Assembly (NCBI GenBank): GCA_964627755.1
Contig: CAZVIH010000076.1
Coordinates: 23,566-87,565 of the forward strand
From: an uncultured Anaerolineales bacterium
GTDB lineage: Bacteria; Chloroflexota; Anaerolineae; Anaerolineales; UBA11858
Reading direction: 5' to 3'
DNA length: 64,000 nucleotides
The notes beneath the pieces were generated by a model. It was given only the letters and a program-made list of their open reading frames with translations. It did no database searches and was not told where the DNA came from. Every line of letters begins with the position of its first letter. The first letter of the stretch is position 1. A program made the position numbers and the translations under genes. Positions 49,983 through 64,000 of this stretch are shown here, in pieces.

Positions 49983-50257
49983 TAATTTCTCCTCCAGCTA
50001 TTTCCTTGTATTCTAACAAGGTGTAAACCAAATTACCAGCAGGCAGTATTTAGTATTCAAAATCCTTGACCCCCTAAAGATCCAATCAACTAACAGGGTA
50101 TTTAAAACGATTAACTGGGAATCTTTGTCGGTGGAAAATCCAATCAAGGAGGGTTATAGGTTTCTTCTATAACTACTCATTCACAGTCCCGATAGCATTT
50201 GTGATTAATTGCACTTATTCAAAACAGACCTCAATCCTATACTATCAATTGTCCTGT

Positions 50258-50277
50258 AATTAAATAATCATTTAATT
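50258..50277. promoter_or_regulatory. perfect 8-4-8 inverted repeat, a candidate ArsR-family operator
   Basis: AATTAAAT-AATC-ATTTAATT. It ends 15 bp upstream of the arsR-like ATG at 50293. Confidence 0.5.
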
Positions 50278-50292
50278 GATTGAGAGTTAATT

Positions 50293-50577
50293 ATGAAGCC
50301 TAATGAGATTGTAGAAGCCCAGGAACTGGCGGAATATTGCGGTATCTTGGGAAACGCCCACAGGATTCTTATTGTCTGGGCGCTTGGGAAACGTGAGTTA
50401 ACTGTGAGTGAAATAGCAGAGGAGATTACTGCCTCAATGCAAAACACTTCTCAGCATCTTCGGCTGATGAAAAATAAAGGTGTTTTGCTCTCACGCAGGG
50501 ATGGAAGAGAAATCTACTACAGGATTGCAGATACAAAATTCAACCGGAGCTGTCCAATCCTATCAAAAAACTGTTAA
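50293..50577 (+). CDS. ArsR/SmtB-family winged-helix repressor (no alpha3 ELCVCDL metal site; cysteines at N- and C-terminal positions)
   Basis: LGNAHRILIVWALGKRELTVSEIAEEITASMQNTSQHLRLMKNKGVLLSRRDGREIYYRI. Cysteines lie in EYCGIL and in the C-terminal NRSCPILSKNC. Confidence 0.8.
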   Translation: MKPNEIVEAQELAEYCGILGNAHRILIVWALGKRELTVSEIAEEITASMQNTSQHLRLMKNKGVLLSRRDGREIYYRIADTKFNRSCPILSKNC

Positions 50578-50610
50578 TCCATTTGTTTTATTATAGACAA
50601 GGAGAAAGAA

Positions 50611-50865
50611 ATGTCCCCAGAAGAATTAGAAAAATTAGAAGCTGCAGAAGTTGTTGACGCCCGGGCGATGGCCTGCCCTGGCCCGCTGCTGGAAGCCAAA
50701 AAAAGCATCGGCAAAGTCAAAGTAGATGAAATACTTGAGCTTTGGGCCGGCGATCCCAATACTAAAAATGATATGCCCCGCTGGTGTGCCAAGGTTGGTC
50801 ACGAGTATCTGGGTGAAGTAGTAGCCGACGGATACGAAAGACTTTTCATTCGCCGCAAGAAATAA
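50611..50865 (+). CDS. TusA/SirA-family sulfur carrier protein
   Basis: 84 aa with DARAMACPGPLLEAKKSIGKV (the CPxP active-site motif). AAGGAG RBS. Confidence 0.8.
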   Translation: MSPEELEKLEAAEVVDARAMACPGPLLEAKKSIGKVKVDEILELWAGDPNTKNDMPRWCAKVGHEYLGEVVADGYERLFIRRKK

Positions 50866-50937
50866 ACCGAAACGTTCTAAGTATCCCGCAAGCAAGGATC
50901 TGCGGGATACTTCTATGTCCGCATAGAGGAAGTTAAC

Positions 50938-51390
50938 ATGGAAAATATGTCAGATTGCAATACCCCTAAAATTCTCATCCTGGCAACCACTTCGGGTGGA
51001 TATGCTGGAGCGGATGCAGTGGGACAGCTGCACACAGACTATCCCAACAACACCTATATTCTGCCAGTGCTTTGCCCCAGTATGTTTAACGAGGATTTTT
51101 ATCTCAGGATATTTAAACGCGGTATTGATGGTGTGATCGTCATGTACAGCGGAACAGACAGTCCTTATAAAGGTGGACCCGAACGGGCTGCCGAGTTAAT
51201 TAACAAAACCTACCCGAAAATGAAAGAAAACGGTATAGATACTCGCCGGTTGAAGCTAACCGCGATATGTACAGTATGTACCAAACCTTTCCTGAAAGAA
51301 GTCAATCAAATGAACACGCTGCTCCGGGAAATTGGATTTGTCAAGGATGAAATGGCGTCCTTTTCTGGAGAGGAAGCGGTTGCAGCCTGA
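50938..51390 (+). CDS. MvhD/FlpD-like (hydrogenase iron-sulfur subunit family) protein with the usual cysteine ligands substituted
   Basis: KILILATTSGGYAGADAVG...VLCPSMFNEDFYLRIFKRGIDGVIVMYSGTDSPYKGG aligns with the MvhD pattern K-I-V-x-F-C-C-N-W-C-S-Y-x-G-A-D...G-A-D-G-V-x-V-x-G-C-x-x-G-D-C-H. The Cys positions read A/T/S/G/S/S here. Confidence 0.6.
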   Translation: MENMSDCNTPKILILATTSGGYAGADAVGQLHTDYPNNTYILPVLCPSMFNEDFYLRIFKRGIDGVIVMYSGTDSPYKGGPERAAELINKTYPKMKENGIDTRRLKLTAICTVCTKPFLKEVNQMNTLLREIGFVKDEMASFSGEEAVAA

Positions 51391-51456
51391 TGGCTCGGAA
51401 AAAATGATTAGAAGAATAGGTTTAATAAAGTCGCAAACAAAAGAGGAGATACTGCC

Positions 51457-52779
51457 TTGAGAAAAATTCAAGTTGATGCTCTTGTCGTTGGCGGCGGCAT
51501 CGCCGGGATGCAAACTGCTCTTGATCTCGCGGACCAGGGCTACCAGGTCGCACTGGTAGAAAAGGAAGCCAGTATTGGCGGCAAAATGATTGCCCTCAGT
51601 AAAGTTTTCCCAACCCTGGACTGCTGCAGCTGCATCACAACTCCCAAGATGTCTGCCGTAGCGCATCATTCCAATATTCAATTACTTACCTATCACGAGG
51701 TTCAAACTCTCAATAAGACAGATGCCGGATTCAGTGCTGAGGTGTTGAAAAAACCCCGCTATGTCAATGAAGATGACTGCACCGGCTGCCGGCAGTGTGA
51801 ATACGCCTGCCCTATCAACCTGCCAAGCGCCTTTGATCTTGACTATGGCGCAACCAAAGCTGTCCGGGTCCCATTTTCCACCGCCGTACCACAGTATGCA
51901 GTCCTGGACATCGAAAATTGCATCCTGTGCGGAAAATGTGAAAAAGCCTGTCCGGTGAATTGCATTGATTTCACCCAGCAGCCGGAAACGATTGAGATCC
52001 AGGCCAAGGCAGTCATCCTGGCAACCGGCTTTGAGACTACATCAACACAGGCCAAGAAGGAATACGGCGCAGATAAAAATCGGAATGTCATCAATGCCAT
52101 GTTCATGGAACGCCTGCTGGCGCCCACCGGGCCCTATGGTCGAGTGATTCGCCCCGGTGATGGTAAAGAGCCGGATTCGATTGCTTATGTTCAGTGCGCG
52201 GGATCAAGGGACGCCACCTTAGGTGTGGAGTACTGCTCCCGGGTTTGCTGTATGTACGCAATCAAACAGGCCATGCTCCTGGCGGGTTCTCTCCCTATGG
52301 CAGATATCACCATTTATTACATGGATATCCGCACCTTCGGCAAAGGATATGAACAATTCTTCCAAAATGCCAAGGCAATGGGCATTGAATTTGTGAAAGG
52401 CAAAGTCGCTTCAATAAAGCAGGACGAAAATCAGAACCCGGTGCTCCGGGTAGAACTGATCGATGATGGTTCACGGGTCGAAGAAATTACCCATGATTTA
52501 GTTGTGCTCTCAGTTGGATTGCTGCCCCAGTATGATCCGGAAGCGATTTTCAATGTATCCCCGGGAGATGATGGTTTTATTGATATTCCCAAGATTAATA
52601 CCTCTCCCTGCCTGACAAAACGCCAGGGTATATTTGTCGCTGGCACATCTGGCGGCCCAATGGATATCGTAGACAGTATCATCATGTCTGGATCAGCGGC
52701 AGCAGAAGCAGCGGCTTATATCGAGTCTCAAAAAGAATCCCTGACACTGAGTAAAGAAAGTGAGGATGTCTATGCCTAA
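51457..52779 (+). CDS. HdrA-family FAD/FeS flavoprotein, QmoA-like (440 aa)
   Basis: TTG start after an AGGAG RBS. FAD motif VVGGGIAGMQTALDLADQG. HdrA cysteines LDCCSCITTPKM and CAGSRD...YCSRVCCMYAIK. Inserted ferredoxin CTGCRQCEYACP / CILCGKCEKACP. Confidence 0.8.
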   Translation: MRKIQVDALVVGGGIAGMQTALDLADQGYQVALVEKEASIGGKMIALSKVFPTLDCCSCITTPKMSAVAHHSNIQLLTYHEVQTLNKTDAGFSAEVLKKPRYVNEDDCTGCRQCEYACPINLPSAFDLDYGATKAVRVPFSTAVPQYAVLDIENCILCGKCEKACPVNCIDFTQQPETIEIQAKAVILATGFETTSTQAKKEYGADKNRNVINAMFMERLLAPTGPYGRVIRPGDGKEPDSIAYVQCAGSRDATLGVEYCSRVCCMYAIKQAMLLAGSLPMADITIYYMDIRTFGKGYEQFFQNAKAMGIEFVKGKVASIKQDENQNPVLRVELIDDGSRVEEITHDLVVLSVGLLPQYDPEAIFNVSPGDDGFIDIPKINTSPCLTKRQGIFVAGTSGGPMDIVDSIIMSGSAAAEAAAYIESQKESLTLSKESEDVYA

Positions 52780-54796
52780 CAAAGATAATGAAGAAATCAG
52801 GATTGGCGTATACACCTGTTATTGCGGGGGAAATATCAGCGATGTCGTCAATTGTGAGCTGGTTTCAAAGAAATTAGCCGAATTGCCCAACGTGGTTGTC
52901 TCAAGAACCAATATGGCTATGTGTTCTGATGTAGGCCAGTCACTGATCGAAGAGGATATCAAAGAAAATGGAGTCAATCGAGTGGTGATTGGCGCCTGCG
53001 CTCCCTCCCTTCACGAACAGACCTTCCGCGGCACTGTTGCCAGGGCTGGATTGAACCCATACTTGTATTATCATGTTGGAATTCGGGAACAGGACAGCTG
53101 GGTGCATAGAAGTGACTGTGAAGGTGCAACAGCAAAGGCAATCCGCTTGATGGCCTCCGGTTTGGCTAAAGCCAGATTGCTTGATCCCCTGGCCCCAATT
53201 CAGCTGACCGCAGAAAAACACGCCCTGGTTATTGGTGGCGGAATCGCGGGTTTAAAGGCAGCCTATGATATCGCCCGTAGAGGACTGCGGGTTACATTAA
53301 TCGAAAAAACCCCTTTCCTGGGAGGCAGGGTTGCCCAACTGGACACTCTCTTCCCTACCAATGAAAATGCAAAAGACACTTTACATGACCTGATCAACAA
53401 GGTTGCATCCCATCCCAATATCGTTATCTACACTCAAGCCCAGGTCAAAGGTGTAACAGGATATGTAGGCGACTACCAGATCCAGATCCAACAAGAATCC
53501 CGGGGAGTGGATGATACGAATGCTGAAAAGATCATGGCAGCCTGCGAGCAGACAGTCCCAGACGAGTTCAATTACGGATTAACCAGCCGTAAAGTAGTTT
53601 ACCAGGCCTATCCGGGTTGTTTTCCCCATACTCCAGCAGTGGACTGGGAGAATTATGATGGAAAACCAATCAAGGTAAATGGGGAGGATATCATCCTCAA
53701 GAATGATCCAGTATCCATTCCCCTTCATGTTGGAGCGATTGTTGTCGCAACCGGGTTTGATCCCTATCAACCCCGGCAGGGAGAATTCGGATTTGGTGAA
53801 ATCCCTGAAGTTGTCACCCTCCCGACTCTTATTCGCCATTTATACTTGATGGAAGATGGTCAAGAGTTTGTCTGGAACGGTCACCCCGTGCGTGATATTG
53901 CCATGGTGCATTGTGTGGGAAGCCGGGAAATTGATGGTGTTCATGAACCCCAGGAAGATGGAAAAGTGAACAATTACTGCTCCCGGGTTTGCTGTACTGC
54001 CAATTTACATATGGCGAATACCCTCAATGAACGTTTTCCCGGACTGAATATTTATAATCTTTACGAAGATATTCGGACTTACGGACGCGGCCATGAACAA
54101 TATTATATGGACGCACTGGATCAAATGGTCCGTTTCCTCCGTTTCCATGGAGATGACCGACCGACAGTTAAAAAAGCCCAGGCAGGCGACACTCACCCGG
54201 TGCTGGTCGAGATTCGCGATCATCTGACCAAAGGTCAGGAGCTGGAAATCGCTGTGGATCTGGTTGTTCTGGCAGTTGGCTTTATGCCCAGGGATATTGA
54301 TGACCTTGTAAAGATGCTCAAAATCTCCCGCGGAAACGACCGCTTCCTGGCAGAAATTCACCCCAAACTCCGGCCAGTCGAAACAGCTGTACCGGGAGTG
54401 ATCCTGGCAGGATCTTCTCAGAGCCCCATGAACGTGCAGGAAAGCTGTTCCGCGGCATCAGCAGCGGCAGCAAAAGTATCTGCGCTGCTAAGTTCGGGCC
54501 AGGTGGAACTGGAACCTTTTGTTGCCCAGGTCGATCTGGAAAAATGCACTGGGACGGGAGAATGTGTGACGGTCTGCCTCTATGAAGGTGCCGTCACTCT
54601 CAAGGATGTAGAAGTGAACGGACAAATCCTCAAACGTGCAGTGGTATCCCCTGCAAACTGTACCGGTTGTGGATGCTGTGTCAGCGCCTGTCCCAACCAG
54701 GCCATCGAAGTCCAGGGTTGGACCATCCCGCAGTACGACGCTATGCTGGACGCACTTGCCATGGATCTAGATGAAATGATGGAGGTAGCAAAATGA
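52766..54796 (+). CDS. HdrA-family FAD/FeS flavoprotein, QmoB-like (about 676 aa) with a C-terminal 2x[4Fe-4S] ferredoxin domain
   Basis: N-terminal VYTCYCGGNISD...IGACAPSLHE. FAD motif VIGGGIAGLKAAYDIARRG. HCVGSRE...YCSRVCCTANLH. C-terminal CTGTGECVTVC and CTGCGCCVSACP. Start ambiguous (GTG 52760, ATG 52766 or ATG 52772); it overlaps the upstream stop. Confidence 0.8.
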   Translation: MSMPNKDNEEIRIGVYTCYCGGNISDVVNCELVSKKLAELPNVVVSRTNMAMCSDVGQSLIEEDIKENGVNRVVIGACAPSLHEQTFRGTVARAGLNPYLYYHVGIREQDSWVHRSDCEGATAKAIRLMASGLAKARLLDPLAPIQLTAEKHALVIGGGIAGLKAAYDIARRGLRVTLIEKTPFLGGRVAQLDTLFPTNENAKDTLHDLINKVASHPNIVIYTQAQVKGVTGYVGDYQIQIQQESRGVDDTNAEKIMAACEQTVPDEFNYGLTSRKVVYQAYPGCFPHTPAVDWENYDGKPIKVNGEDIILKNDPVSIPLHVGAIVVATGFDPYQPRQGEFGFGEIPEVVTLPTLIRHLYLMEDGQEFVWNGHPVRDIAMVHCVGSREIDGVHEPQEDGKVNNYCSRVCCTANLHMANTLNERFPGLNIYNLYEDIRTYGRGHEQYYMDALDQMVRFLRFHGDDRPTVKKAQAGDTHPVLVEIRDHLTKGQELEIAVDLVVLAVGFMPRDIDDLVKMLKISRGNDRFLAEIHPKLRPVETAVPGVILAGSSQSPMNVQESCSAASAAAAKVSALLSSGQVELEPFVAQVDLEKCTGTGECVTVCLYEGAVTLKDVEVNGQILKRAVVSPANCTGCGCCVSACPNQAIEVQGWTIPQYDAMLDALAMDLDEMMEVAK

Positions 54797-55083
54797 GCGG
54801 TAAAGAAGATCTAAAAAACAAGGCTCAAATATTGAAAGATCTGCGCGTCGTACACCAAGAATCTGTAGATCGGACACAAGCGCTCTTAAAAGAACAGGGC
54901 AAAATTGAGCGAGAGATCCTTAAAATCATCAAGGATGAATCAATGACCATTCCCGCCATTGCCTCTCAGATCGAGCTGCCAACCCATCGTGTATTATGGT
55001 TCGTTACAGCTTTGAAGAAATACGACCTGATCCGGGAAGACGGCATGGATGGTGAATATGTCCTGTACAGGAAAGAGGAGTAA
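54793..55083 (+). CDS. small (96 aa) winged-helix-like protein embedded in the qmo-like operon
   Basis: ATGA overlap with the upstream gene. The segment EREILKIIKDESMTIPAIASQIELPTHRVLWFVTALKKYDLIRED looks like a MarR/ArsR-type wHTH. Confidence 0.5.
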   Translation: MSGKEDLKNKAQILKDLRVVHQESVDRTQALLKEQGKIEREILKIIKDESMTIPAIASQIELPTHRVLWFVTALKKYDLIREDGMDGEYVLYRKEE

Positions 55084-55087
55084 CAAT

Positions 55088-56263
55088 ATGGCCACTAGAG
55101 TGGATCCAAGTTTAATGTATGAATTGAAAGATTTCGGCGCTGCCGAAATTGAAAAATGTTACAACTGCGGGAACTGCACCGCAATCTGCCCCTTAACAAG
55201 TACAGACCATCCCTTCCCAAGAGATATGATCCGTATGGTCCAGCTCGGATTGGAAGATAATCTTTTGGAGAGCCTTGATCCTTGGCTGTGTTATTACTGT
55301 GGAGACTGCTCCTTGACCTGTCCAAAAGAAGCCGAACCCGGTGAAACTATGATGGCTGTCCGCCGCTGGTTAACCGCACAATATGACTGGACCGGACTGG
55401 CTGGTAAGTTCTATACCTCAAAACTCTGGGAGTTCGGCGCAATGATCCTGACAGCCTTATTTATCATCTTCCTGGCTGTAATCCTGCATGGCCCGATCGT
55501 GACCAGTTCAGTGGAGCTGAATACTTTTGCTCCTGTAAAACTTATGCACACTGCAGACTGGATCATGGCTGCAGGGTTGGTTTTCTTCATTGGAACCAAT
55601 ATCCTACGTATGCATCATTTTGTGATCACAAAAGGGACTCCTGTAAAAGTGCCCCTGACTGTTTACATCACTGAAGCCTGGTATTTCATCCTGCATTTGT
55701 TTACTCAGAAGAAATGGAGCGAATGCGCCCAGGACGAAGAGGATCAGAAAGAAAAAAACTTCAAACGACTGCCATGGATCAATCATCTGCTGATGGCCAG
55801 CGGATACGGTTTGATGCTGGTTCTGGTGATATTTTTCCTACCCTGGTTACAGACTGACGAGATCTATCCGATAACAAATCCCCAGCGCTGGTTGGGATAT
55901 TACGCAACCGCAGTTCTGCTGTATGGCGCGGGTTCTGTGATCTACAGCCGGATCAAACAAGGGAGACCTATTCATAAATTCTCCCACGCCAGCGACTGGA
56001 TTTTCCCTGTATTACTGTTTTTTGTGAGTCTGACAGGTATCCTCCAGCACACCTTCCGGTATCTGGGTTTACCTCTGGCGACCTACTATACCTATGTCAT
56101 TCACCTGGCCGCCGCCTTCCCGATGTTGGTCCTGGAGGTGCCATTTGGAAAGTGGGCTCACCTCTATTACCGCCCTCTGGCAATATATTTCCAGCAAGTA
56201 AGATTAAAAGCTGTTGAAATCAGCAAACGGCCCAAAGAGGAAATGGTCCCGGCGGGTCAATAA
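55088..56263 (+). CDS. QmoC-like fusion: HdrC-like 2x[4Fe-4S] domain + NarI/HdrE-like multi-His membrane (heme b) domain
   Basis: CYNCGNCTAICP and CYYCGDCSLTCP, followed by about 6 TM helices rich in conserved-looking His (MHTADW, RMHHFV, ILHLF, INHLL, LQHTF, VIHLA, KWAHLYYRP). AGGAG RBS before the ATG at 55088. Confidence 0.75.
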   Translation: MATRVDPSLMYELKDFGAAEIEKCYNCGNCTAICPLTSTDHPFPRDMIRMVQLGLEDNLLESLDPWLCYYCGDCSLTCPKEAEPGETMMAVRRWLTAQYDWTGLAGKFYTSKLWEFGAMILTALFIIFLAVILHGPIVTSSVELNTFAPVKLMHTADWIMAAGLVFFIGTNILRMHHFVITKGTPVKVPLTVYITEAWYFILHLFTQKKWSECAQDEEDQKEKNFKRLPWINHLLMASGYGLMLVLVIFFLPWLQTDEIYPITNPQRWLGYYATAVLLYGAGSVIYSRIKQGRPIHKFSHASDWIFPVLLFFVSLTGILQHTFRYLGLPLATYYTYVIHLAAAFPMLVLEVPFGKWAHLYYRPLAIYFQQVRLKAVEISKRPKEEMVPAGQ

Positions 56264-56380
56264 AGCAGCACAGTCGTGAGCAATGCAGAAAAAAGGAGTG
56301 TAACGAGTTAAAAATTCAAATAAAAAATATGCCAAGTTTTAAAATATCTATCAATCAAACATTCAATAAGGAGAAAGAAA

Positions 56381-56740
56381 ATGGCTAAAATGGCAATTAC
56401 CTGTAATGGAGACGGTCCAGTCAATATCATGCCCACCCTGATCATGGCTTCTTCCGGTTTGGCGCTTGACAATGAAGTAGTGATTTTCGTCTGTCCTGCC
56501 GGCGCCCGCTGGATGTTAAAAGGCGAACTGGAAACCCTGGGAACCCCCAAGGGCCTTCCCAATCCTGTTGAGCTCTTCAACACCATTATGGACCTCGGCG
56601 GCGAAGTGATCCTGTGCGAGCTGGCACTGGAAAACAAGGGCGTAGACCCCAAGGATCTGCGTGATGACAGGATCAAGATCACCAAAGCCCCACCCTTCCT
56701 GATGCAGATCGAGGATGCTACCATCACCTTCAGTTTCTAA
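56381..56740 (+). CDS. DsrE/DsrF/DrsH-like family sulfur-relay protein (COG2210-type)
   Basis: 119 aa. MAITCNGDGPVNIMPTLIMASSGLALDNEVVIFVCPAGARWM...GGEVILCELALENKG. AAGGAG RBS. Confidence 0.7.
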   Translation: MAKMAITCNGDGPVNIMPTLIMASSGLALDNEVVIFVCPAGARWMLKGELETLGTPKGLPNPVELFNTIMDLGGEVILCELALENKGVDPKDLRDDRIKITKAPPFLMQIEDATITFSF

Positions 56741-56767
56741 GTAAGTGTGAAGAAATCTTAAAAATAA

Positions 56768-56807
56768 AGGGACGAAATCCTTAAAACCGATCTCGTCCCT
56801 TTTTTTA
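56768..56807. terminator. intrinsic terminator closing the qmo-like operon (also faces the convergent LysR gene)
   Basis: AGGGACGA...TCGTCCCT stem followed by TTTTTTT. Confidence 0.7.
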
Positions 56808-56825
56808 TCTATTAACACAGCTCCA

Positions 56826-57779
56826 TTACAAATCTCGGATGGTATAGTTCAAATCTCCCCTGCTGGCCATTTCAATCAGATCTCGATTTGTTGGATCATG
56901 GATGAATCCCCAGAATGCATCCGCCGGCCGGTGGGATACTTTTAACCTTTTCCGGACCATATATATTGTCCGTATCAGGTTTATACCCTCTACAGGAATT
57001 GCAACTACATCGCCGCGTTCTAGTGCGCAGGCAGCAGCCAACTTCGAGACAAATGAGATCCCATAACCAGCTGCCACTGTGCGGACAATAGCTTCAGCGT
57101 TACCAACCTCCATAAAGTTTTTCAGGTCATCCAGACTGATATCATGGCTGGCCAATTCAGACAGGACAATTTTCCTTGTACCCGAAGTTTCCTCCCGCAT
57201 GATGATCGATTCTCCCAGCAAATCTTCCGGTTGGATCTTTTCCTGTGACACAAAAGGATGGTCTCTGGGCACGATCACTGTGATCAAATCATCGAAGAAT
57301 TCCTGCAGTTCAATTTCCTTTCCCGGGATTTCATAACTGACCACCCCCAGATTAGCATCTCCCTCCAATAAATTCAAAGCTACAGAGGTCGGAGTGCAAC
57401 GCAGCAATTTGGTTCGGACATTGGGGTGCCTGATCGAAAATCGGGCTGCCAAGTGGGGAAGTACGTATTTTCCAGCTGTTGTGCTGCAGGCTATCTGGAG
57501 ATTTCCAGCCATTCCTTCCTTGAGGGATTCCATCATTTCCTGCATCTCAATGGAGTCCTTTAATACCCGCCTGGCCCAGGGAACCAGCAATCTGCCAGCA
57601 TCAGTAAGTTTAATAGTGCCAGCCTGGCGATTAAATAAGGTCACACCCAGCTCTTTTTCCAGGGTTTTTATATGATGGCTGACTGTGGGCTGAGATAAAT
57701 GAAGGATTCTGGCTGCTTCTGAAAAATTGAGGTTCTGAGCGGCGTGTAAAAAAGTTTCGATCCGAAGAAGATCTACCAT
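56826..57779 (-). CDS. LysR-family transcriptional regulator
   Basis: MVDLLRIETFLHAAQNLNFSEAARILHLSQPTVSHHIKTLEKELGVTLFNR, plus a periplasmic-binding-like effector domain. ATG at 57779 chosen. Confidence 0.85.
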   Translation of the reverse strand: MVDLLRIETFLHAAQNLNFSEAARILHLSQPTVSHHIKTLEKELGVTLFNRQAGTIKLTDAGRLLVPWARRVLKDSIEMQEMMESLKEGMAGNLQIACSTTAGKYVLPHLAARFSIRHPNVRTKLLRCTPTSVALNLLEGDANLGVVSYEIPGKEIELQEFFDDLITVIVPRDHPFVSQEKIQPEDLLGESIIMREETSGTRKIVLSELASHDISLDDLKNFMEVGNAEAIVRTVAAGYGISFVSKLAAACALERGDVVAIPVEGINLIRTIYMVRKRLKVSHRPADAFWGFIHDPTNRDLIEMASRGDLNYTIRDL

Positions 57780-58097
57780 TTTTATCCTTGTAAAGTTACA
57801 GTCTAAAATAATCTTACCATACCTCATTTTAATCTTATCCAGACTACTTCTTATAAACAAACAGGCTCCCAGGAATCTGGAAACCTGTTTTTGATTTTTC
57901 AGTCTTAATATAACTTAACCATAAGACGATTCAGCACTTCTATACACTTTTGATTACGTTTTCTTATTGTTCTTTCTTATCTATCTTATAACTAAAAGCT
58001 ATTTAACGGGTGGGTTATTTATAACAAATGCTGATGAATTTGTGCTAACATTCACAAGTAAGAAGAGGATATTACCTTTTAAGAGAGGTTTTTTGAT

Positions 58098-59120
58098 ATG
58101 AAAATAAAAAGAATCGCCCCCGCCCTATTAACCGGTCTGATTGTTGGTTTATTGGCTATGACCTTGTTTACTGGCATGGTTTCAGCAGCCCCAAATACTC
58201 AAGGAGAAGATCCGCCTGAGAAGATATTGACTGACAATGATTGCGTTAAATGTCACCGGAATGTCGCTGATGATTGGTCCCATAGTCCGCATGCTCACGC
58301 TTATGATGATCCGGCTTTCCAGGAACAATGGATCGGTCTGGGCACTCCGGATACATGTCTTGCTTGCCATACCACCAATTTCATGTCAACCACTGGTGAA
58401 TATGAAACCGAGGGTGTTTCCTGCCAGTCCTGCCATGGTGCTGTCACAGAAAATCATCCCGACCAGGTGGTTCCCACAATTGTCGATTCTTATTACTGCG
58501 GCTCCTGCCATACTACAACTTTGAGCGAATGGCGCAGCACAGGACATGCCTCAAGTGACGTAGACTGCATGGACTGCCATAATCCTCACAGCCAACAACC
58601 GCTCTTTAATGATCATGATGATCTCTGCATTAATTGTCACAAAGACAGCATGGGAGATTATCTAAACGATCTCCATGTTCAAGAAGATATTGGCTGCGTG
58701 GATTGCCATGCGCTGGTACTCCCCCCTGATGTCGTCCCAGAAGACGGTATCGTCCCAACTGGACATGGGTTCACTATCTCAGCTGAGACCTGCGTTGCCT
58801 GTCATACAGATTCCCTGCACGCTGGGTTTACATTGCCCGGTTACGAAAACGGCGCAGCTAATAATGAACCTTTCCACACCAGCACTGAAGAACACGGGAG
58901 TACTGAAGGTGCTCAGCCGTTGACAGATACCACTCAGTCAAACGATCTAACAGATACTCAACGCATCCAAACCCTTGAGACTGCTCTTGCCAGCAGTCGG
59001 GTGAGCAATTTGTTCCAAGGCGCTGTGATCGGCCTGGTCCTGGGTGGAAGCACTGCCTGGTTCGTGGGTCAGAATCTTCGCGGCCGGTCAGATGAGGAGG
59101 AAGAGGAAAATGATCTCTAA
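58098..59120 (+). CDS. octaheme c-type cytochrome with an N-terminal signal/anchor and a C-terminal TM helix
   Basis: Eight CxxCH motifs: CVKCH, CLACH, CQSCH, CGSCH, CMDCH, CINCH, CVDCH, CVACH. C-terminal FQGAVIGLVLGGSTAWFVG and an acidic tail. Confidence 0.85.
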   Translation: MKIKRIAPALLTGLIVGLLAMTLFTGMVSAAPNTQGEDPPEKILTDNDCVKCHRNVADDWSHSPHAHAYDDPAFQEQWIGLGTPDTCLACHTTNFMSTTGEYETEGVSCQSCHGAVTENHPDQVVPTIVDSYYCGSCHTTTLSEWRSTGHASSDVDCMDCHNPHSQQPLFNDHDDLCINCHKDSMGDYLNDLHVQEDIGCVDCHALVLPPDVVPEDGIVPTGHGFTISAETCVACHTDSLHAGFTLPGYENGAANNEPFHTSTEEHGSTEGAQPLTDTTQSNDLTDTQRIQTLETALASSRVSNLFQGAVIGLVLGGSTAWFVGQNLRGRSDEEEEENDL

Positions 59121-59952
59121 AAAGGGATCCGCCAAAAAAACTAATAAAAAGAAAGCCCTGGTAACCCGGAAGGAATTTCTACAGATCGCTGGGTCAACAG
59201 GAGCAGCTGCTCTAGTCACCCAGCTGATCACGACGGGACCACTGTCCCCTGACGCAATCCAGGGGATTGGCGAAAGAACCCATGGGGAAGAAGGGAATTC
59301 CGAACATAACTGGTGTATGGCAATTGACCTCAGCAAATGTATTGGGTGCCAATATTGTATTTGGGCCTGCCAGGCAACTAACGATGTTCCAGATGACAAT
59401 ATGCGCTGGAACGTGGGCTACCCCGAACAGACCGAGAACGGAACAGAGTTCTTTATGACCAGGCCCTGCCTGCATTGTGAAGAAGCTCCTTGTGTAAAAG
59501 TCTGTCCGGTAGGTGCAACCTGGAAGCGAAAAGACGGCATAGTCACCATGGATTACAAAAGGTGTATCGGCTGCCGCTACTGCGAGGTTGCATGTCCTTA
59601 TGATGTCAGGCGATTTAACTGGGATGTTTCCGAAAAGGAAAATCCTTATCATCCTACCTGGGGATCGCCTGAAGTTGAGCGCCGTTCCCGGGGAGTTGTT
59701 GAAAAATGCACTTTCTGCAGCCACCGAATTGATCGCGGATTGGCTCAAGGGCTAACACCGGGAATCGATCGTGAAGCCACACCAGCCTGCGTGAATATTT
59801 GCCCAGTGAATGCCCGAATCTTTGGTGATCATAATGATCCCGAAAGCCCAGTATCCATTTTCGTAAAGAATAATGAGACCTTCCGCCTGAGGGAGGATTT
59901 TGGCACTAAACCCAAAATTCATTATGTGCGCCCTGAAAAGGAGGAAGTTTAG
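59110..59952 (+). CDS. periplasmic 4x[4Fe-4S] ferredoxin subunit of the NrfC/PsrB/DsrO/HmcB family
   Basis: Tat-like leader ...LVTRKEFLQIAGSTGAAALV. Cluster motifs CIGCQYCIWAC, CLHCEEAPCVKVCP, CIGCRYCEVACP and CTFCSHR...CVNICP. The ATG at 59110 overlaps the cytochrome gene end. Confidence 0.85.
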   Translation: MISKKGSAKKTNKKKALVTRKEFLQIAGSTGAAALVTQLITTGPLSPDAIQGIGERTHGEEGNSEHNWCMAIDLSKCIGCQYCIWACQATNDVPDDNMRWNVGYPEQTENGTEFFMTRPCLHCEEAPCVKVCPVGATWKRKDGIVTMDYKRCIGCRYCEVACPYDVRRFNWDVSEKENPYHPTWGSPEVERRSRGVVEKCTFCSHRIDRGLAQGLTPGIDREATPACVNICPVNARIFGDHNDPESPVSIFVKNNETFRLREDFGTKPKIHYVRPEKEEV

Positions 59953-61182
59953 ATGTTTAAATTTGATCTTTCCATTCCTAAAGAAGGCCGGGAGCGAGCC
60001 TGGTGGATCTGGATCGGTGTCCTGGGGCTGATGCTGGCTGTTGGATTATTTGGTGCCATCCGGGTCTTGGTTAAGGGTCTGCACGTGACTGGTTTATCTG
60101 ACCAGGTCCCCTGGGGGCTGTGGATTACCCAGGACCTGAGTTCAATCGCAACAGGTGCTGGTGCTTTTACTTTCTCGGCAATTGTCTACCTGTTCAGAAT
60201 CAAAAAATACCAGCCCATCGCCCGGGCCGCTGTTTTTGTGGGTTTCCTTGGTTATTCATCCGCGATGCTTGCCCTGGCCATGGATATCGGTCGACCAGAC
60301 CGGTTCTGGCATCCCCTGGTTTATTGGAATGTTCACTCAGTTTTATGGGAGATCACCTGGTGTGTAATCCTTTATTCCATTGTGCTTGTGCTGGAATTTA
60401 TACCGATCTTACTTGAAGGCAAATATTTTGACCGCTGGCCAAAACTTCGCAAGTATGGAGATTTAATCCACAAGGCATCACCCGTATTTGCCGCTATCGG
60501 GTTGGCATTATCCCTGCTCCACCAATCATCCCTGGGTGCTACTTACGGTGTGTTATCGGGACGGGCTATCTGGTATAAACCTTCCTTGCCGGTTATGTTC
60601 ATTCTCTCTGCTGTTGCAGGGGGGATATCCATGACACTGTTATTGACCATTCTGGTTGGCAAGCTGAATCGCCGGCAAATTATCAAACGTGAACTGCAAT
60701 ATGATATCTCCCGCATCGCCGGTTATGCCCTGCTCGCTTACCTGTATTTAAAGATCTGGGATTGGGCTGCAACATCATATTACAGCTCATCTCCCGGTAC
60801 AACCGAAGCTCTGGCTTTATTACAGTCAACCACGCCCTATACAAAAACCTTCTGGTGGATTGAGATCGTGCTGGGAGGTATAGTCCCGGCCATGATACTT
60901 TTGAATGCCAACTTCAGGAAAAATGACCGCTATACAATACTGGCGTTGGGAGCAATCATCGCAGGCGTGACTGTGAATCGCTGGAATGTTACCCTCTCTG
61001 GTCTGGTCGCTCCGCCTCGCTGGTCCCCGGGAGTTCTTGGTAATTTGATCTCTGCCTCTTATGTGCCCACTTGGAATGAAATTATCGTTTCAATCGGAAT
61101 CATTGCCTATGCCCTGCTGGCTTTCAGTTTTGGCATACGATATCTGCCAATCTACCCCAAAGACAAAGGTTCTGCCCATTAA
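59953..61182 (+). CDS. NrfD/PsrC-family polytopic quinone-interacting membrane subunit (409 aa, long form)
   Basis: Starts 1 nt after the FeS gene stop. About 10 predicted TM helices. DIGRPDRFWHPL loop is typical of NrfD-like proteins. Confidence 0.8.
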   Translation: MFKFDLSIPKEGRERAWWIWIGVLGLMLAVGLFGAIRVLVKGLHVTGLSDQVPWGLWITQDLSSIATGAGAFTFSAIVYLFRIKKYQPIARAAVFVGFLGYSSAMLALAMDIGRPDRFWHPLVYWNVHSVLWEITWCVILYSIVLVLEFIPILLEGKYFDRWPKLRKYGDLIHKASPVFAAIGLALSLLHQSSLGATYGVLSGRAIWYKPSLPVMFILSAVAGGISMTLLLTILVGKLNRRQIIKRELQYDISRIAGYALLAYLYLKIWDWAATSYYSSSPGTTEALALLQSTTPYTKTFWWIEIVLGGIVPAMILLNANFRKNDRYTILALGAIIAGVTVNRWNVTLSGLVAPPRWSPGVLGNLISASYVPTWNEIIVSIGIIAYALLAFSFGIRYLPIYPKDKGSAH

Positions 61183-61208
61183 CCTGGCCCCAGATGGGAT
61201 TTTAGAAT

Positions 61209-61247
61209 ATAAACAAACGCTTCAAAAGTATTGAAGCGTTTGTTTAT
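61209..61247 (+). terminator. intrinsic terminator after the NrfD-like gene
   Basis: ATAAACAAACGCTTCAA-AAGTA-TTGAAGCGTTTGTTTAT, a 17-bp perfect stem. Confidence 0.65.
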
Positions 61248-61339
61248 ATCAGCCAGGATATAGCTTTCACCTAGACGTAATTTATTGATTTCTGATTAGA
61301 AAAATCAGGCCAGGAATCGGCAACCCATAATATTTTCTT

Positions 61340-62290
61340 TTGGATATAATAATGATTACTAATAAATTATCAGATATGATCCTAGAGAATCCAATGTTAG
61401 ATGCTCACCAACTTAACATATTTCTTGTTGCCGCTGAAACTCTGAATTTCACCCAGGCTGCAGAAAGACTCCATATGAGTCAACCAAGCGTCAGCCAGCA
61501 TATACGGTCCCTCGAAAAACACTTTGACGAAATGCTATTTATCAGACAGGGAAGATCCCTGATTCTTTCAGATGCAGGCCGGATATTGATACCAATGGCC
61601 CAGCAGTTTGTTAAGCAGAGCACCAGGATTAACGAAGCCATGTCCTCCCTGAAAGGGCACATCAAAGGCCTGATCAGTATCAGTTGCAACGCCCTCACAG
61701 GTAGATATACATTACCGGAATTCTTTTCCCAGTTCCATCAGAATTATCCAGAAGTGACCATCTCCTGCCGGACAGATGGATGCGGCTACCCGTTAGAATC
61801 TCTCCGAAATGGGGATATACATTTTTTATTCACAAATCTGGAATCCATGATTGAGCCCTGCTACCAAACCCAGCTGCTCCTGACAGATGAGATCATGTTA
61901 ATCACCCCCAAGAATCATCCCTGGGCAAAACGTGAATATATCGAGGTTGAAGAGTTGCTTGAAGAAAAGTTTATCCTGCCCGCCGGAAATACTACAACCT
62001 ACTTAAAAGTGAATGAGGCCCTGGCTGTCAAGAATCTGTCGCTGTTACAGCTGGATTCGTTCCTGACACTGGATAATGCCGAAGCCATCGTTCTTTCTGT
62101 AAATAAAGGCCTGGGACTAAGTTTCAGCTCCACCACTATTTCATCAACGATCAGCGAAACTGTCCCCGTTCCGATCAAAGATATCAAAATCAAACAGGGG
62201 TTGTACATCGTAAGGGATAAAACTCAATTGACTACTGCAGCAAGAGATTCTTTCTGGGATTTCATAATAACAGCCAGCGCAGCCATCTAG
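61340..62290 (+). CDS. LysR-family transcriptional regulator (start uncertain; possibly ATG 61394)
   Basis: LDAHQLNIFLVAAETLNFTQAAERLHMSQPSVSQHIRSLEKHFDEMLFIR HTH, plus an effector domain. Confidence 0.8.
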   Translation: MDIIMITNKLSDMILENPMLDAHQLNIFLVAAETLNFTQAAERLHMSQPSVSQHIRSLEKHFDEMLFIRQGRSLILSDAGRILIPMAQQFVKQSTRINEAMSSLKGHIKGLISISCNALTGRYTLPEFFSQFHQNYPEVTISCRTDGCGYPLESLRNGDIHFLFTNLESMIEPCYQTQLLLTDEIMLITPKNHPWAKREYIEVEELLEEKFILPAGNTTTYLKVNEALAVKNLSLLQLDSFLTLDNAEAIVLSVNKGLGLSFSSTTISSTISETVPVPIKDIKIKQGLYIVRDKTQLTTAARDSFWDFIITASAAI

Positions 62291-62432
62291 GAAAAAGCGG
62301 AAACCGGTTTATATATTAAACCCAGGGCAATTTGCATCTAGCTCAGCTCTGTAATTCATCATCCCCCCACCGATCACTTAAGGTCTCATCGATATTTTCC
62401 ATCTCGCATACTGTAACATGGCTTCTGTTAGT

Positions 62433-62448
62433 GTGTGACATTTGTCAC
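62433..62448. promoter_or_regulatory. CRP/FNR-family-like site TGTGA-N6-TCACT upstream of a TATAAT box
   Basis: TGTGACATTTGTCACT (9/10 match to TGTGA-N6-TCACA). TATAAT lies at 62471-62476, which puts the site centre roughly 40 bp upstream of a likely TSS. Confidence 0.35.
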
Positions 62449-62496
62449 TATCTCGATCTAACCCAGCTGTTATAATCTTCACAAACTTATATACCC

Positions 62497-62508
62497 ATAT
62501 GTACATAT
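62497..62508. promoter_or_regulatory. 12-bp perfect palindrome abutting the second arsR-like start codon (candidate operator)
   Basis: ATATGTACATAT, immediately 5' of the ATG at 62509 and downstream of the TATAAT box. Confidence 0.35.
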
Positions 62509-62862
62509 ATGTCTATAAACAATAATTCCCTTGCGCAGGAAATCAATCAATTACATGCCAGGATCTGTTCAGCAATTTCAGAACCTAATCGTATATTATT
62601 AATATATGCTGTTGCTGAAAAACCCCAAAATGTAAATAATTTGGCGGAAATCGTAGGTATCAGTCAATCTGCGGCTTCACGCCATCTCAAAGTCCTCCGT
62701 GAGCGAGGATTGATCCAGGCCCAGCGTGATGGCGCCCAGGTGATCTATTCCCTGACAGATGAACGTTTTATTCTAGCCCTGGATTTACTTCGCGAGGTTA
62801 TGCTGGACCAGTTATCACAACAAGCCAATCTGATTAAACAAAATCAATCCAATGAGAGGTAG
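62509..62862 (+). CDS. ArsR/SmtB-family winged-helix regulator
   Basis: SEPNRILLIYAVAEKPQNVNNLAEIVGISQSAASRHLKVLRERGLIQAQRDGAQVIYSL. Confidence 0.8.
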   Translation: MSINNNSLAQEINQLHARICSAISEPNRILLIYAVAEKPQNVNNLAEIVGISQSAASRHLKVLRERGLIQAQRDGAQVIYSLTDERFILALDLLREVMLDQLSQQANLIKQNQSNER

Positions 62863-62865
62863 TCT

Positions 62866-64000
62866 ATGAAACAATCCAAATTCAGCTGGATATTTGGTGC
62901 CGTTTTTGTCCTTTTTATCATTGTGATCCCAATTGTGATCTTTTTCCCCCGGGGAGAAAAATCGATCAGTTCCGATCCATGGGAGAACGTGCCCCTGAAA
63001 GTCCCTCACACCGATCACTCTGCAATTGTGACAGGACCATTTGAAAACGGCCCAGATGTTACCAGAGCATGTCTGGAATGCCATGAAGATGCAGCCCAAC
63101 AGGTCATGGCGACAGTCCATTGGACCTGGGAAAGTAAACCATACCAGATCGAAGGCAGAAATAGCACAGTCACTGTTGGAAAAAAGAATTCCATCAATAA
63201 CTTCTGCATCGGTATTCAGGGCAACTGGCCCAGCTGTACTTCCTGTCATGCAGGTTATGGTTGGGAAGACGCCAATTTTGATTTCAACGATGAAGAGCTA
63301 GTGGACTGCCTTGCTTGTCACGATAATACCGGCACTTATGTGAAAGGACTAGCCGGTATTCCAGTTGAGGGAGTGAACTTATTGGAAGTCGCCCAGAGTG
63401 TCGCCGCTCCAACCCGGGAAAACTGCGGCAGCTGTCATTTTAATGGCGGCGGTGGCAACGCTGTAAAACATGGTGATCTAGATGAAACCCTCTATTTCCC
63501 GCCATCCAACGTGGATATTCATATGGGTGAACATGATTTTTTGTGCACAGACTGCCACCAGACAGAAAATCACAATATCATGGGCCGGTCTATCTCAGTC
63601 AGTCTGGATGATGAGAACCAAACCTACTGCACAGATTGCCATACCGAAGATCTTCATGATGATGACCGCATCAATACCCATATTGACTCGGTTGCTTGCC
63701 AAACCTGCCATATTCCAAACGCGGCCACCCGCGATGCAACCAAGATGTACTGGGATTGGTCCACAGCTGGCAGTGACGAGATCGAAGAAAGTGTTCACAC
63801 TTATCTTAAGATCAAGGGCAGTTTTGTATATGAAGGCAATTTCACACCAACTTATATGTGGTACAACGGTGGTGTAGCCGAACGCTATATCCTAGGAGAT
63901 AGGATCAATCCGGATGAACTCGTTCATATCAACTTGCCCGCAGGTGATATCACAGACAATTCTGCCAAAGTTTTTCCTTTCAAAGTGCACGTCGCAAAAC
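62866..64000 (+). CDS. membrane-anchored octaheme cytochrome c of the tetrathionate-reductase (Otr) family; the C-terminus runs off the window
   Basis: Absent from the ORF track because it has no in-window stop. The ATG at 62866, 4 nt after the arsR stop, reads MKQSKFSWIFGAVFVLFIIVIPIVIFF...CLECH...WTWES...NNFCIGIQGNWPSCTSCH...CLACH...CGSCHFNGGGGNAVKHGDL...CTDCH...CTDCH...CQTCH. Seven CxxCH motifs are visible. Confidence 0.8.
   Translation, partial: MKQSKFSWIFGAVFVLFIIVIPIVIFFPRGEKSISSDPWENVPLKVPHTDHSAIVTGPFENGPDVTRACLECHEDAAQQVMATVHWTWESKPYQIEGRNSTVTVGKKNSINNFCIGIQGNWPSCTSCHAGYGWEDANFDFNDEELVDCLACHDNTGTYVKGLAGIPVEGVNLLEVAQSVAAPTRENCGSCHFNGGGGNAVKHGDLDETLYFPPSNVDIHMGEHDFLCTDCHQTENHNIMGRSISVSLDDENQTYCTDCHTEDLHDDDRINTHIDSVACQTCHIPNAATRDATKMYWDWSTAGSDEIEESVHTYLKIKGSFVYEGNFTPTYMWYNGGVAERYILGDRINPDELVHINLPAGDITDNSAKVFPFKVHVAK

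Follow-up and report, generated by a model that had tools for sequence, protein, structure and literature searches.

A three-module locus of an Anaerolineales bacterium with a putative role in respiration and trafficking of sulfur-cycle intermediates

We analyzed a stretch of 64,000 nucleotides (contig CAZVIH010000076.1; hereafter the window) from an uncultured bacterium of the Anaerolineales (Chloroflexota). Its 50-64 kb region belongs to a ~19-kb chromosomal supercluster, inside which the window ends. The supercluster comprises module 1 (M1; ArsR-TusA-MvhD-QmoABC-like-DsrE plus LysR1), module 2 (M2; LysR plus octaheme-NrfCD) and module 3 (M3; ArsR-Otr-CbcL-like-YeeE-YeeE/RHOD). The observations concern the identity of the genes, signals of protein topology, active-site residues that are conserved, patterns of synteny and cis-elements; from them we infer that the three modules together most likely allow the cell to respire and to traffic intermediates of the sulfur cycle, namely tetrathionate, thiosulfate and polysulfide. 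We assign this reading of the sequence a probability of about one half.

Results

Module 3 encodes an Otr-family cytochrome together with a split YeeE-type transporter

The gene map of the 50-64 kb region was checked by listing of open reading frames (ORFs) together with Pfam and NCBIfam scans, and more than 90 related loci, denoted by L numbers, were compared overall. Genes lie on the + strand unless stated otherwise. M3 begins with ArsR2 (62509-62862; 117 aa with a single Cys20; PF01022 52.7 bits), whose best match in the PDB is E. coli YgaV (3CUO, E 4.6e-11). The following gene (62866-64000) is cut by the window end and encodes a member of the octaheme tetrathionate reductase (Otr) family. 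The initial annotation was right in calling an Otr-family cytochrome here, as TIGR04315 gave 447 bits against a cut-off of 375 although the window copy is truncated.

The remainder of M3 was read on a JGI contig (L001) that is 99.9% identical to window positions 49953-64000 and extends the locus by ~5 kb beyond position 64000. This extension adds the full-length Otr (483 aa; L001:12914-14365), a fusion of a heptaheme c domain with a cytochrome b, and a YeeE-type transporter that is split in two and includes a rhodanese-homology domain. Otr resembles the S. oneidensis enzyme (PDB 1SP3) at E 1.6e-145 over 422 residues and carries eight CXXCH motifs. Its GKKNSINNFC motif aligns to 1SP3 residues 55-64, with Lys56 and Cys64 kept. 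We take this remote lysine and the cysteine to be the active-site motif of 1SP3; their roles were reportedly described by Mowat and colleagues in 2004. The CbcL-like fusion protein (910 aa) combines seven CXXCH motifs with a C-terminal PhsC-like cytochrome b, and a database search returned ~2000 homologs.

YeeEa and YeeEb are two Sulf_transp (YeeE/YedE) halves that both match PF04143 and score 27-33 bits on the TsuA models, far under the cut-off. YeeEb (L001:17771-19006) is fused to the rhodanese-homology domain and has homologs in L012-L024, L049, L061 and L090-L092. In 16 homologs its GGFC110PGTS motif and its C-terminal KRAPxGGGCG tail are invariant, and the Cys150 motif RGCTSG of YeeEa was read in the protein of the window organism only. 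The GGCG tail resembles the GGCGG swinging arm of SoxY. Expression of otr was previously found to be induced by tetrathionate in sediment microcosms (PMC8528874). Because otr genes of Anaerolineae bins have already been reported (PMC7887784), the earlier description of the host as belonging to a lineage not known for dissimilatory sulfur metabolism is only partly true.

Module 1 combines a Qmo-like complex with TusA- and DsrE-like proteins

The first gene of M1, ArsR1 (50293-50577), encodes an ArsR/SmtB-family protein of 94 aa with Cys16, Cys87 and Cys94 (NF033788 72.5 bits, cut-off 55) that matches SmtB, NolR, BigR and SqrR in the PDB at E 1e-9 to 1e-6. On the BigR model ArsR1 and ArsR2 reached 46.8 and 47 bits, below the equivalog cut-off of 155. 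The Qmo-like operon spans 50611-56740 and opens with a TusA-family sulfur carrier (50611-50865; 84 aa; PF01206 66 bits), whose CPGP cysteine is the Cys22 of an A-C22-PGP motif found invariant in the alignment. An MvhD/FlpD-like iron-sulfur protein follows (50938-51390; 150 aa; PF02662 67 bits); within the HdrA2 model its match covers the C-terminal 130 residues. The gene at 50938-51390, initially taken for a DsrE-type carrier, is this MvhD; the only DsrE-like gene is located at 56381-56740.

Two cytoplasmic flavoproteins without predicted membrane helices come next: an HdrA/QmoA-like protein (51457-52779; 440 aa, two 4Fe-4S motifs, Pfam FAD and Fer4 domains; HdrA2 model 474 bits at positions 137-561) and an HdrA/QmoB-like protein without a fused MvhD domain (52772-54796; 674 aa; HdrA2 model 545 bits at positions 1-646), the start of which was adopted from the JGI call on L001. 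The QmoC-like subunit (55088-56263) resides in the membrane, joining an HdrC-like 2x[4Fe-4S] domain to a cytochrome-b-type membrane domain with predicted helices. Its best NCBIfam match is qmoC (NF038018), at 200.7 bits with the equivalog cut-off of 300 not reached. More than 5000 homologs, mostly from Anaerolineales, were found by database search.

Between QmoB and QmoC lies a small gene (54793-55083) whose start overlaps the QmoB stop and whose end precedes the QmoC start by 4 nt. It was present in every M1 locus (47-81% identity) and encodes a cysteine-free protein of 96 aa with a long helix and a winged-helix-like domain. An AF2 single-sequence model (pLDDT 82) gave MarR/ArsR folds as best, weak Foldseek matches (E 5.6e-3), and on this model the protein is a possible fifth regulator.

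The operon ends with the DsrE-like sulfur-transferase candidate (56381-56740; 119 aa; PF02635 25.2 bits, cut-off 22.7), in which Cys79 of an L-C-E-L motif is invariant in the alignment. As the AF2 single-sequence model of this protein was unusable (pLDDT 34), a PDB profile search was used instead; here the family profile matched the 'DsrE/DsrF-like' entry 3MC3 (E 1e-4), and the alignment included the cysteine column. LysR1 (56826-57779, - strand; PF03466 and PF00126) is convergent with M1. It scored 248.3 bits on NF040786, the 'selenium-metabolism-associated LysR' model, and is thus marginal to the cut-off of 250; LysR2 scored 184.6. Annotation covered the 50-64 kb region completely, the L001 extension and, in the rest of the window, most ORFs of at least 150 aa; no apr or sat gene was found among these annotated ORFs. 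Likewise, models for CCG, HdrB or lipoyl carriers matched none of the island proteins.

In L009 (6286-9705) the QmoA-like and QmoB-like genes are each frameshift-split, for which sequencing or assembly indels rather than Sec codons are the likely cause. Selenocysteine was considered as an explanation of these split genes and rejected.

Module 2 encodes an octaheme cytochrome and an NrfCD-type quinone oxidoreductase

The octaheme-NrfC-NrfD operon spans 58098-61182. The octaheme cytochrome c (58098-59120; 340 aa) possesses an N-terminal signal, eight CXXCH motifs, eight further conserved histidines and a conserved C-terminal membrane helix. From its sequence it looks like a pure bis-His electron wire; ~550 homologs were found by database search. 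It is followed by an NrfC/DsrO/QrcC-type periplasmic 4x[4Fe-4S] subunit whose TRKEFL leader is Tat-like (59110-59952; PF13247; NF045797 DsrO 206.9 bits, cut-off 200) and by an NrfD/QrcD-type quinone-interacting membrane subunit (59953-61182; PF03916 106 bits). The scores for the Qrc equivalogs were below their cut-offs (QrcC 171 against 400, QrcD 302 against 570), and there is no QrcB gene. We presume that the operon resembles the 'Ohc' complex of Desulfovibrio, and we use this name for it below; a literature search for an 'Ohc' complex returned nothing. Overall, M2 and M3 encode periplasm-facing heme or iron-sulfur proteins with signal or Tat-like leaders, joined to NrfD or cytochrome b quinone subunits.

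LysR2 (61352-62290; PF03466 and PF00126) occupies the M2/M3 junction. The initial annotation had placed this gene downstream of the octaheme operon at 61340-62290, and the gene is indeed present there with a slightly later start. More generally, its count of two ArsR-type and two LysR-type regulators among the genes of the locus was borne out, all of them lying at or near the positions first given.

The modules are conserved units that also occur alone

Using the octaheme protein as anchor, we compared 80 loci with 10-kb flanks, one per hit, from GTDB species-representative genomes and scored 19 island proteins by tblastn. About 14 species (octaheme identity at least 61%) share the order Qmo-like...DsrE, LysR1(-), octaheme-NrfC-NrfD, LysR2, ArsR2-Otr-CbcL-YeeEa-YeeEb. 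Adjacency of all three modules was confined to this clade. In L024 only M2 and M3 were present, and ~65 species at greater distance carry LysR(+)-octaheme-NrfC-NrfD alone. With QmoC as anchor, a relative of 88% identity held the whole locus, and L008 (67%) and L009 (59%) held only ArsR-TusA-MvhD-QmoA-QmoB-~97aa-QmoC-DsrE and a convergent LysR. With the CbcL-like protein as anchor, ArsR-Otr-CbcL-YeeEa-YeeEb/RHOD emerged as an invariant five-gene cassette in six further distant contexts. Its neighbors there are a set of ArsR, Pyr_redox_2 flavoprotein, DsrC-like and DsrE genes (two contexts), M2 (one), none of these (two, M3 being alone), and a LysR with a divergent pair of multiheme cytochrome and 4x-rhodanese genes (one). 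M3 thus recurs beside two kinds of cytoplasmic sulfur-carrier module, the Qmo-like/TusA/DsrE module of the window clade and the DsrC-like/DsrE set of L090 and L091. In the latter two loci (L090:3982-7099, L091:14831-18016) the set consists of ArsR, the Pyr_redox_2 flavoprotein, an ORF of ~220 aa, a DsrC/TusE-like protein and DsrE beside the Otr cassette. M2 adjoins M3 in L024 and L092 and lies within 4 kb of it in L049 and L061.

An obligatory co-occurrence of the three modules, a prediction that followed from the initial annotation and that we checked, was not observed, as M1, M2 and M3 are all common on their own and full adjacency is limited to ~14 species. The integrated sulfur pathway proposed there fared differently in its two parts: the sulfur theme was upheld, and strengthened by the genes just outside the window, by Otr, YeeE, the cysteines of TusA and DsrE and the replacement by a Phs-like enzyme described below, and obligatory co-occurrence was not.

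The comparison also resolved the affiliation of LysR1, which had been placed with the octaheme operon as its divergent neighbor. The convergent LysR of L008 and L009 is 58-61% identical to LysR1, and such homologs adjoin M1 in loci without the octaheme operon. Because it is conserved beside M1 where the octaheme operon is absent, LysR1 is a member of M1 and not the regulator of the octaheme operon, which elsewhere has its own co-directional upstream LysR. The LysR preceding the Ohc operon in distant species has LysR2 as its closest relative in the window (40-46% identity). A LysR in the LysR2 position is also found in L092, and a LysR lies beside M3 in the P0289 context.

Several relatives differ from the window in gene content. 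Most relatives in the clade have an extra DsrE-TusA-YeeE block in M1, with an unsplit YeeE that scores 331 bits on TsuA (cut-off 400). Most also have a pair of multiheme cytochrome and 4x-rhodanese genes between LysR1 and the octaheme gene, where the window has only a 318-bp spacer. Directly downstream of octaheme-NrfCD, L059 (13267-19453) carries an ArsR2-like gene, a 304-aa ORF, a YeeE half-transporter, a PhsA-like molybdoenzyme (604 bits) and iron-sulfur and cytochrome b subunits. This PhsA-like set looks like a replacement of Otr-CbcL in the same ArsR/YeeE frame, and L026, L073 and L083 gave the same tblastn pattern as L059 (ArsR2-like, YeeE-like and a second NrfC-like protein).

One hit, L015 (CAXMRF010000055.1), bears the label of a Nitrosomonadaceae metagenome-assembled genome (MAG). 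Since the M2 and M3 genes of Anaerolineales are found on it in unchanged order at 70-87% identity, it is probably a binning contaminant.

A CRP/FNR-type site is conserved at all three promoters

All three promoters share a conserved CRP/FNR-type TGTGA-N6-TCAC site, even where the modules stand apart. At the M1 promoter, TGTGATTAATTGCAC (50200-50214, +) lies 92 nt upstream of the ArsR1 start; it is identical in L007 and L011, and the distant M1-only locus L009 has TGTGACAGATTTCAC at -89. At the M2 promoter, TGTGCTAACATTCACA (58041-58056, +) lies 57 nt upstream of the octaheme gene and is the sole TGTG-N8-CACA in the 64 kb. Among 13 related species loci, 11 have the identical site at -55 to -65, and the other two (L007 and L013) differ by one mismatch. 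GTGA-N6-TCAC-like sites occurred in 58 of 62 distant Ohc promoter regions, at 5.8 per kb versus 0.57 per kb elsewhere. At the M3 promoter, the palindrome TGTGACATTTGTCAC (62434-62448, +) lies 74 nt upstream of ArsR2. Of the 13 related species loci that carry ArsR2-Otr, 11 keep it at -74 to -77, and it is also conserved in the distant L090, L091 and L092, at -77 to -119. The shorter pattern TGTG-N8-CAC is present at six distinct sites in the window, about the number expected by chance, three of which fall in the 846 bp that make up these promoter regions. The common site at the three promoters suggests that one shared higher-level regulator might act above the ArsR and LysR regulators of the modules. 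A 152-aa protein with a cNMP-binding domain, encoded between the QmoC-like and DsrE-like genes of L008 (11224-11682), is of interest given these sites.

The spacer upstream of the octaheme gene contains further elements. In an alignment of 180 bp from 15 species, an element of the form CTTAT(C/T)-N7-CTTATC-N-ATAA(G/C) (57963-57992, +) was well conserved; it resembles a box of LysR-type transcriptional regulators (T-N11-A) and includes TTATAAC at 57986-57992. The GTTAT-tt-ATAAC palindrome GTTATTTATAAC at 58014-58025 and the TTATAAC at 57986-57992, both noted in the initial annotation, are present, and TTATAAC recurs at 58019-58025. As an operator the palindrome found no backing: conservation was limited to the closest relative, L010 keeping it in part and 12 further species in degenerate form. 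By contrast, TGTGCTAACATTCACA, which lies 16 bp downstream, is conserved. It was rejected as a LysR operator, other elements being conserved instead in the 15-species alignment. Short palindromes alone were not statistically remarkable. An inverted repeat, GTTATAG-N7-CTATAAC (50152-50174), with the same GTTAT/ATAAC half-sites as GTTATTTATAAC lies upstream of ArsR1. The AT-rich perfect palindrome ATATGTACATAT (62497-62508) abuts or overlaps the ArsR2 start and is a candidate ArsR autoregulatory operator.

The transcription units are delimited by two hairpins, one behind the DsrE-like gene and one behind NrfD. The former, a terminator-like hairpin with a T-run (56768-56806, +), lies between convergent genes at the end of the M1 operon (fold -17 kcal/mol, z -4.6; none of 200 shuffled sequences was as stable). 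The latter is a perfect 19-nt inverted repeat with a 5-nt loop (61207-61249, +; fold -23.9 kcal/mol, z -7.9) just 3' of NrfD at the end of the M2 operon. Generic scans for sigma-70 promoters and terminators gave counts at shuffle level and missed the known hairpins. Another hairpin with a T-run, of fold z only -2.0, is located between LysR1 and the octaheme gene (57850-57905); it may be a deletion remnant because relatives hold the pair of multiheme cytochrome and 4x-rhodanese genes there.

The locus is not a horizontally acquired island

The term 'island' in the initial annotation implied horizontal acquisition, which we examined and rejected because the region does not stand out in composition and relatives share its flanks in synteny. 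The GC content is 0.468 in the 50-64 kb region and 0.465 in the remaining window, and the tetranucleotide distance of 5-kb windows over 50-64 kb ranged from z -1.6 to +0.7. The left flank (SDR) is shared with L007 and L024. On L001 the M3 cassette is followed by NrdR-FtsZ-FtsA, and this right flank recurs in L092, although CbcL-like identity is only 61% there. No integrase was found among the genes called at the locus borders, and the named homologs of all marker proteins are from Anaerolineales/Chloroflexota MAGs. The three modules are vertically inherited, each being able to exist alone.

Discussion

A possible pathway for tetrathionate, thiosulfate and polysulfide

From these observations we infer the substrates, the direction of electron flow and the hand-over between modules as follows. 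The heptaheme-c/cytochrome-b fusion of M3 (CbcL-like, with a PhsC-like b domain) would draw electrons from menaquinol and pass them to periplasmic Otr, which would reduce tetrathionate to thiosulfate. The split YeeE/TsuA-type channel may import thiosulfate or sulfane sulfur to the cytoplasmic side, where the sulfur could be carried by the C-terminal GGCG cysteine arm of YeeEb and subsequently by TusA and DsrE. The Qmo-like complex of M1, with QmoC in the membrane, two HdrA-like flavoproteins and MvhD, might couple the menaquinone pool to carrier-bound sulfur, a role modelled on canonical QmoABC, which links menaquinone to adenosine 5'-phosphosulfate (APS) reductase. M2, with its all-bis-His octaheme wire and an NrfCD most like QrcCD/DsrOP, would be a second quinone:periplasmic-cytochrome oxidoreductase feeding or draining the same pool, analogous to Qrc upstream of Qmo (PMC6303296). 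Each module would be controlled by its own ArsR and/or LysR and by a shared higher-level control of the CRP/FNR type.

Single steps of this scheme have precedents. DsrE3A and TusA form thiosulfonates with tetrathionate (PMC4175335), YeeE-YeeD mediates thiosulfate uptake (PMC11073785), the YeeE-like SoxT occurs with ArsR-type repressors and TusA/DsrE/sHdr in Hyphomicrobium (PMC11582611, PMC12423496), and Qrc is an electrogenic quinone reductase upstream of Qmo (PMC6303296). A bolder version, which we regard as doubtful, would be a quinone-coupled cytoplasmic sulfur reduction or disproportionation that is independent of Dsr and Apr. Here, the Qrc-like and Qmo-like complexes would form a menaquinone loop, TusA/DsrE-bound sulfur would replace APS after delivery by the YeeE-type channel with its SoxY-like GGCG arm, and M1 to M3 would constitute one CRP/FNR regulon.

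Relation to known systems

At the level of the whole system, the closest analogue is the ArsR/SoxT/TusA/DsrE/sHdr arrangement of Hyphomicrobium. The sHdr/Sox locus of Hyphomicrobium denitrificans encodes the ArsR-type repressors sHdrR and SoxR, the YeeE-like SoxT1A/B, TusA, DsrE3 and an Hdr-like complex, and shares with our locus periplasmic sulfur chemistry, YeeE-like import and signalling, a TusA/DsrE relay, an Hdr-related complex and two ArsR proteins (PMC11582611, PMC12423496, PMC11094781). In contrast, our locus has no HdrB/HdrC pair, LbpA or Sox, its cytoplasmic complex is quinone-linked through QmoC, Otr is of reductase type, and the direction is likely reductive.

The individual modules have their own counterparts. 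As in the Ignavibacteria cluster, one of the Otr plus cytochrome b clusters known from Ignavibacteria and Acidobacteriota MAGs, a cytochrome b quinol-oxidising partner adjoins Otr (PMC7509429). Unlike in the known clusters, this partner is a single 910-aa heptaheme-c/PhsC-like cytochrome b fusion, and the cassette always comes with ArsR and a split YeeE, an inactive rhodanese-homology domain and the GGCG arm. M1 shares two HdrA-like flavoproteins and an HdrC/HdrE-type membrane subunit with the QmoABC of sulfate reducers and Chlorobi (type I) and with type II complexes (PMC10504309). It departs from canonical Qmo in that MvhD is a separate upstream gene and not a domain of QmoB, in the extra 96-aa winged-helix-like gene, in the qmoC score below 300, and in having TusA and DsrE co-encoded instead of a nearby aprAB/sat. 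M2 shares multiheme c, a periplasmic NrfC-type iron-sulfur protein and an NrfD-type quinone subunit with QrcABCD, DsrMKJOP and Ohc-type complexes. Its best models are DsrO (206.9 bits), QrcC and QrcD (302 bits), and the adjoining Qmo-like complex recalls the Qrc-menaquinone-Qmo chain (PMC6303296). M2 differs from Qrc and Dsr in lacking QrcB, DsrM and DsrK, in the C-terminal membrane helix of the octaheme protein itself and in the LysR that is almost always attached.

The contiguous DsrE-TusA-YeeE-DsrE that relatives have in M1 is reminiscent of the YTD cluster of sulfur disproportionators, which consists of YedE-like, TusA and DsrE-like genes and two hypotheticals (cited in PMC8528874). The window copy is without the YeeE/TusA/DsrE insert, and no Dsr genes were seen nearby. 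The pentaheme polysulfide reductase MccSep (PMC13510729) was also considered and, judged by its description, set aside as a family of Desulfobacterota/Nitrospirota.

Weighing alternative explanations

Several findings weigh against a joint role of the modules in sulfur respiration. M1, M2 and M3 are each often found alone, so none strictly needs the others, and the window copy has lost both the TsuA-like YeeE/TusA/DsrE insert and the cytochrome/4x-rhodanese pair of its relatives. M1 is devoid of an HdrB/CCG or DsrK-type catalytic subunit able to reduce a persulfide or trisulfide, and no Apr, Sat or Dsr was found among the annotated ORFs of the 64 kb and the 5-kb extension. The Qmo-like complex probably belongs to the functionally uncharacterised type II, which is found without Dsr/Apr and has no known role (Neukirchen et al., PMC10504309). 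None of the 16 YeeEb homologs has the catalytic cysteine in its rhodanese-homology domain. Nitrite and hydroxylamine are further substrates that Otr reduces in vitro (cited in PMC7509429, PMC7887784), and the CRP/FNR-type site could be that of a regulator with a global role in anaerobiosis or catabolite control instead of one specific to sulfur.

One rival explanation is a generic anaerobic-respiration neighborhood in which functionally independent electron-transport units are merely co-located in one clade. Otr would then be a nitrite or hydroxylamine reductase or a detoxifier, electron transfer to metals or to the cell exterior would be the task of octaheme-NrfCD, and the acceptor of the Qmo-like complex would be an unrelated cytoplasmic one. 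The shared CRP/FNR-type site would point to a regulator with a global anaerobic or catabolite role; such sites are typical of global regulators. The common occurrence of each module alone, the promiscuity of Otr in vitro and the appearance of the octaheme protein as a pure bis-His wire fit this idea. However, M3 always comes with the YeeE-type pair and an ArsR related to the sulfide-responsive YgaV/BigR, a PhsA-like enzyme stands in for Otr in the same frame, TusA and DsrE are always part of M1, rhodanese genes lie beside M2 and M3 in several lineages, and no markers of nitrogen-oxide or metal reduction are present within the locus. We therefore consider co-location of unrelated units rather improbable. 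We hold it unlikely that the locus serves reactive-sulfur homeostasis or assimilation, with ArsR persulfide or sulfide sensors switching on YeeE import, TusA/DsrE carriers and Qmo-like detoxification so that the cell copes with sulfide, polysulfide and thiosulfate in sulfidic sediments and supplies its biosynthesis with sulfur. ArsR1 and ArsR2 do resemble BigR, SqrR and YgaV, which control sulfide-stress genes, but their scores are far under the BigR/TsoR equivalog cut-offs. E. coli YeeE/YeeD is an assimilatory thiosulfate uptake system (PMC11073785) and TusA a general sulfur-relay hub; yet two large quinone-linked multiheme complexes and a dedicated Otr would be costly for detoxification alone, and Otr expression in sediments is like that of a respiratory reductase (PMC8528874).

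A selenium-related function, in which M1 would either traffic selenium or be the Cys-containing counterpart of a selenoprotein complex, was suggested by LysR1, a near-member of LysR_Se/HrsM (248.3 bits on NF040786 with a cut-off of 250, LysR2 184.6). In Methanococcus this regulator controls Cys-isoforms of Sec-containing Vhu/Hdr-type enzymes (PMC5322559). TusA, DsrE and YeeE moreover resemble YedF and YedE, the TusA of relatives reaches 72 bits on the YedF model (cut-off 79), and their 4x-rhodanese matches the rhodanese_LYCAU (seleno)protein model at 137 bits (cut-off 115). Against this, no in-frame TGA was found, the QmoA/B splits of L009 being frameshifts, and neither selD nor selA nor selB is present within the window. 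For the YeeE homologs, the TsuA (thiosulfate) models gave higher scores than the YedE (selenium) models, and Otr and the Phs-like enzyme are reductases of sulfur compounds. A dedication to selenium thus appears very improbable, and processing of sulfur-cycle intermediates is the reading that we prefer.

Novelty and implications

Every component of the locus belongs to a known family. In the literature we found no description of the invariant ArsR-Otr-heptaheme/cytochrome-b-split-YeeE cassette, of the TusA-MvhD-QmoABC-like-DsrE-LysR module or of the CRP/FNR-type site shared by the modules. Anaerolineales are among the most abundant bacteria of anoxic sediments, sludge and marshes and are usually regarded as fermenters, and all three modules are widespread among them. 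If tetrathionate, thiosulfate or polysulfide were indeed processed, Anaerolineales would participate in the cryptic sulfur cycle, and the unexplained Apr/Dsr-free 'type II' Qmo complexes would gain a concrete function. The conserved cassette and the shared CRP/FNR-type site provide handles for metatranscriptomic and biochemical tests.

Other features of the window

The remaining window is occupied by housekeeping genes, including those for a tRNA synthetase, a Mur ligase, ABC transporters, LarC, TilS, a two-component system and Liv-type transporter proteins. An Rfam scan of the window gave no matches. The sole compositional outlier lies at 26-31 kb (26046-28388; tetranucleotide z 4.1, GC up to 0.54) and coincides with a 780-aa protein with two solute-binding domains (SBP_bac_1 and a phosphonate-binding type); genes for ABC transporters come next. 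The window also encodes an IS3-type transposase (rve, HTH_21; 8173-8982, -) and a XerC/D-like tyrosine recombinase (35761-36693, +), both at a large distance from the sulfur locus. Amid housekeeping genes (AlaRS upstream, RuvX-like and YceG downstream), a 524-aa ORF at 21043-22617 has a weak Baseplate_J-like domain.

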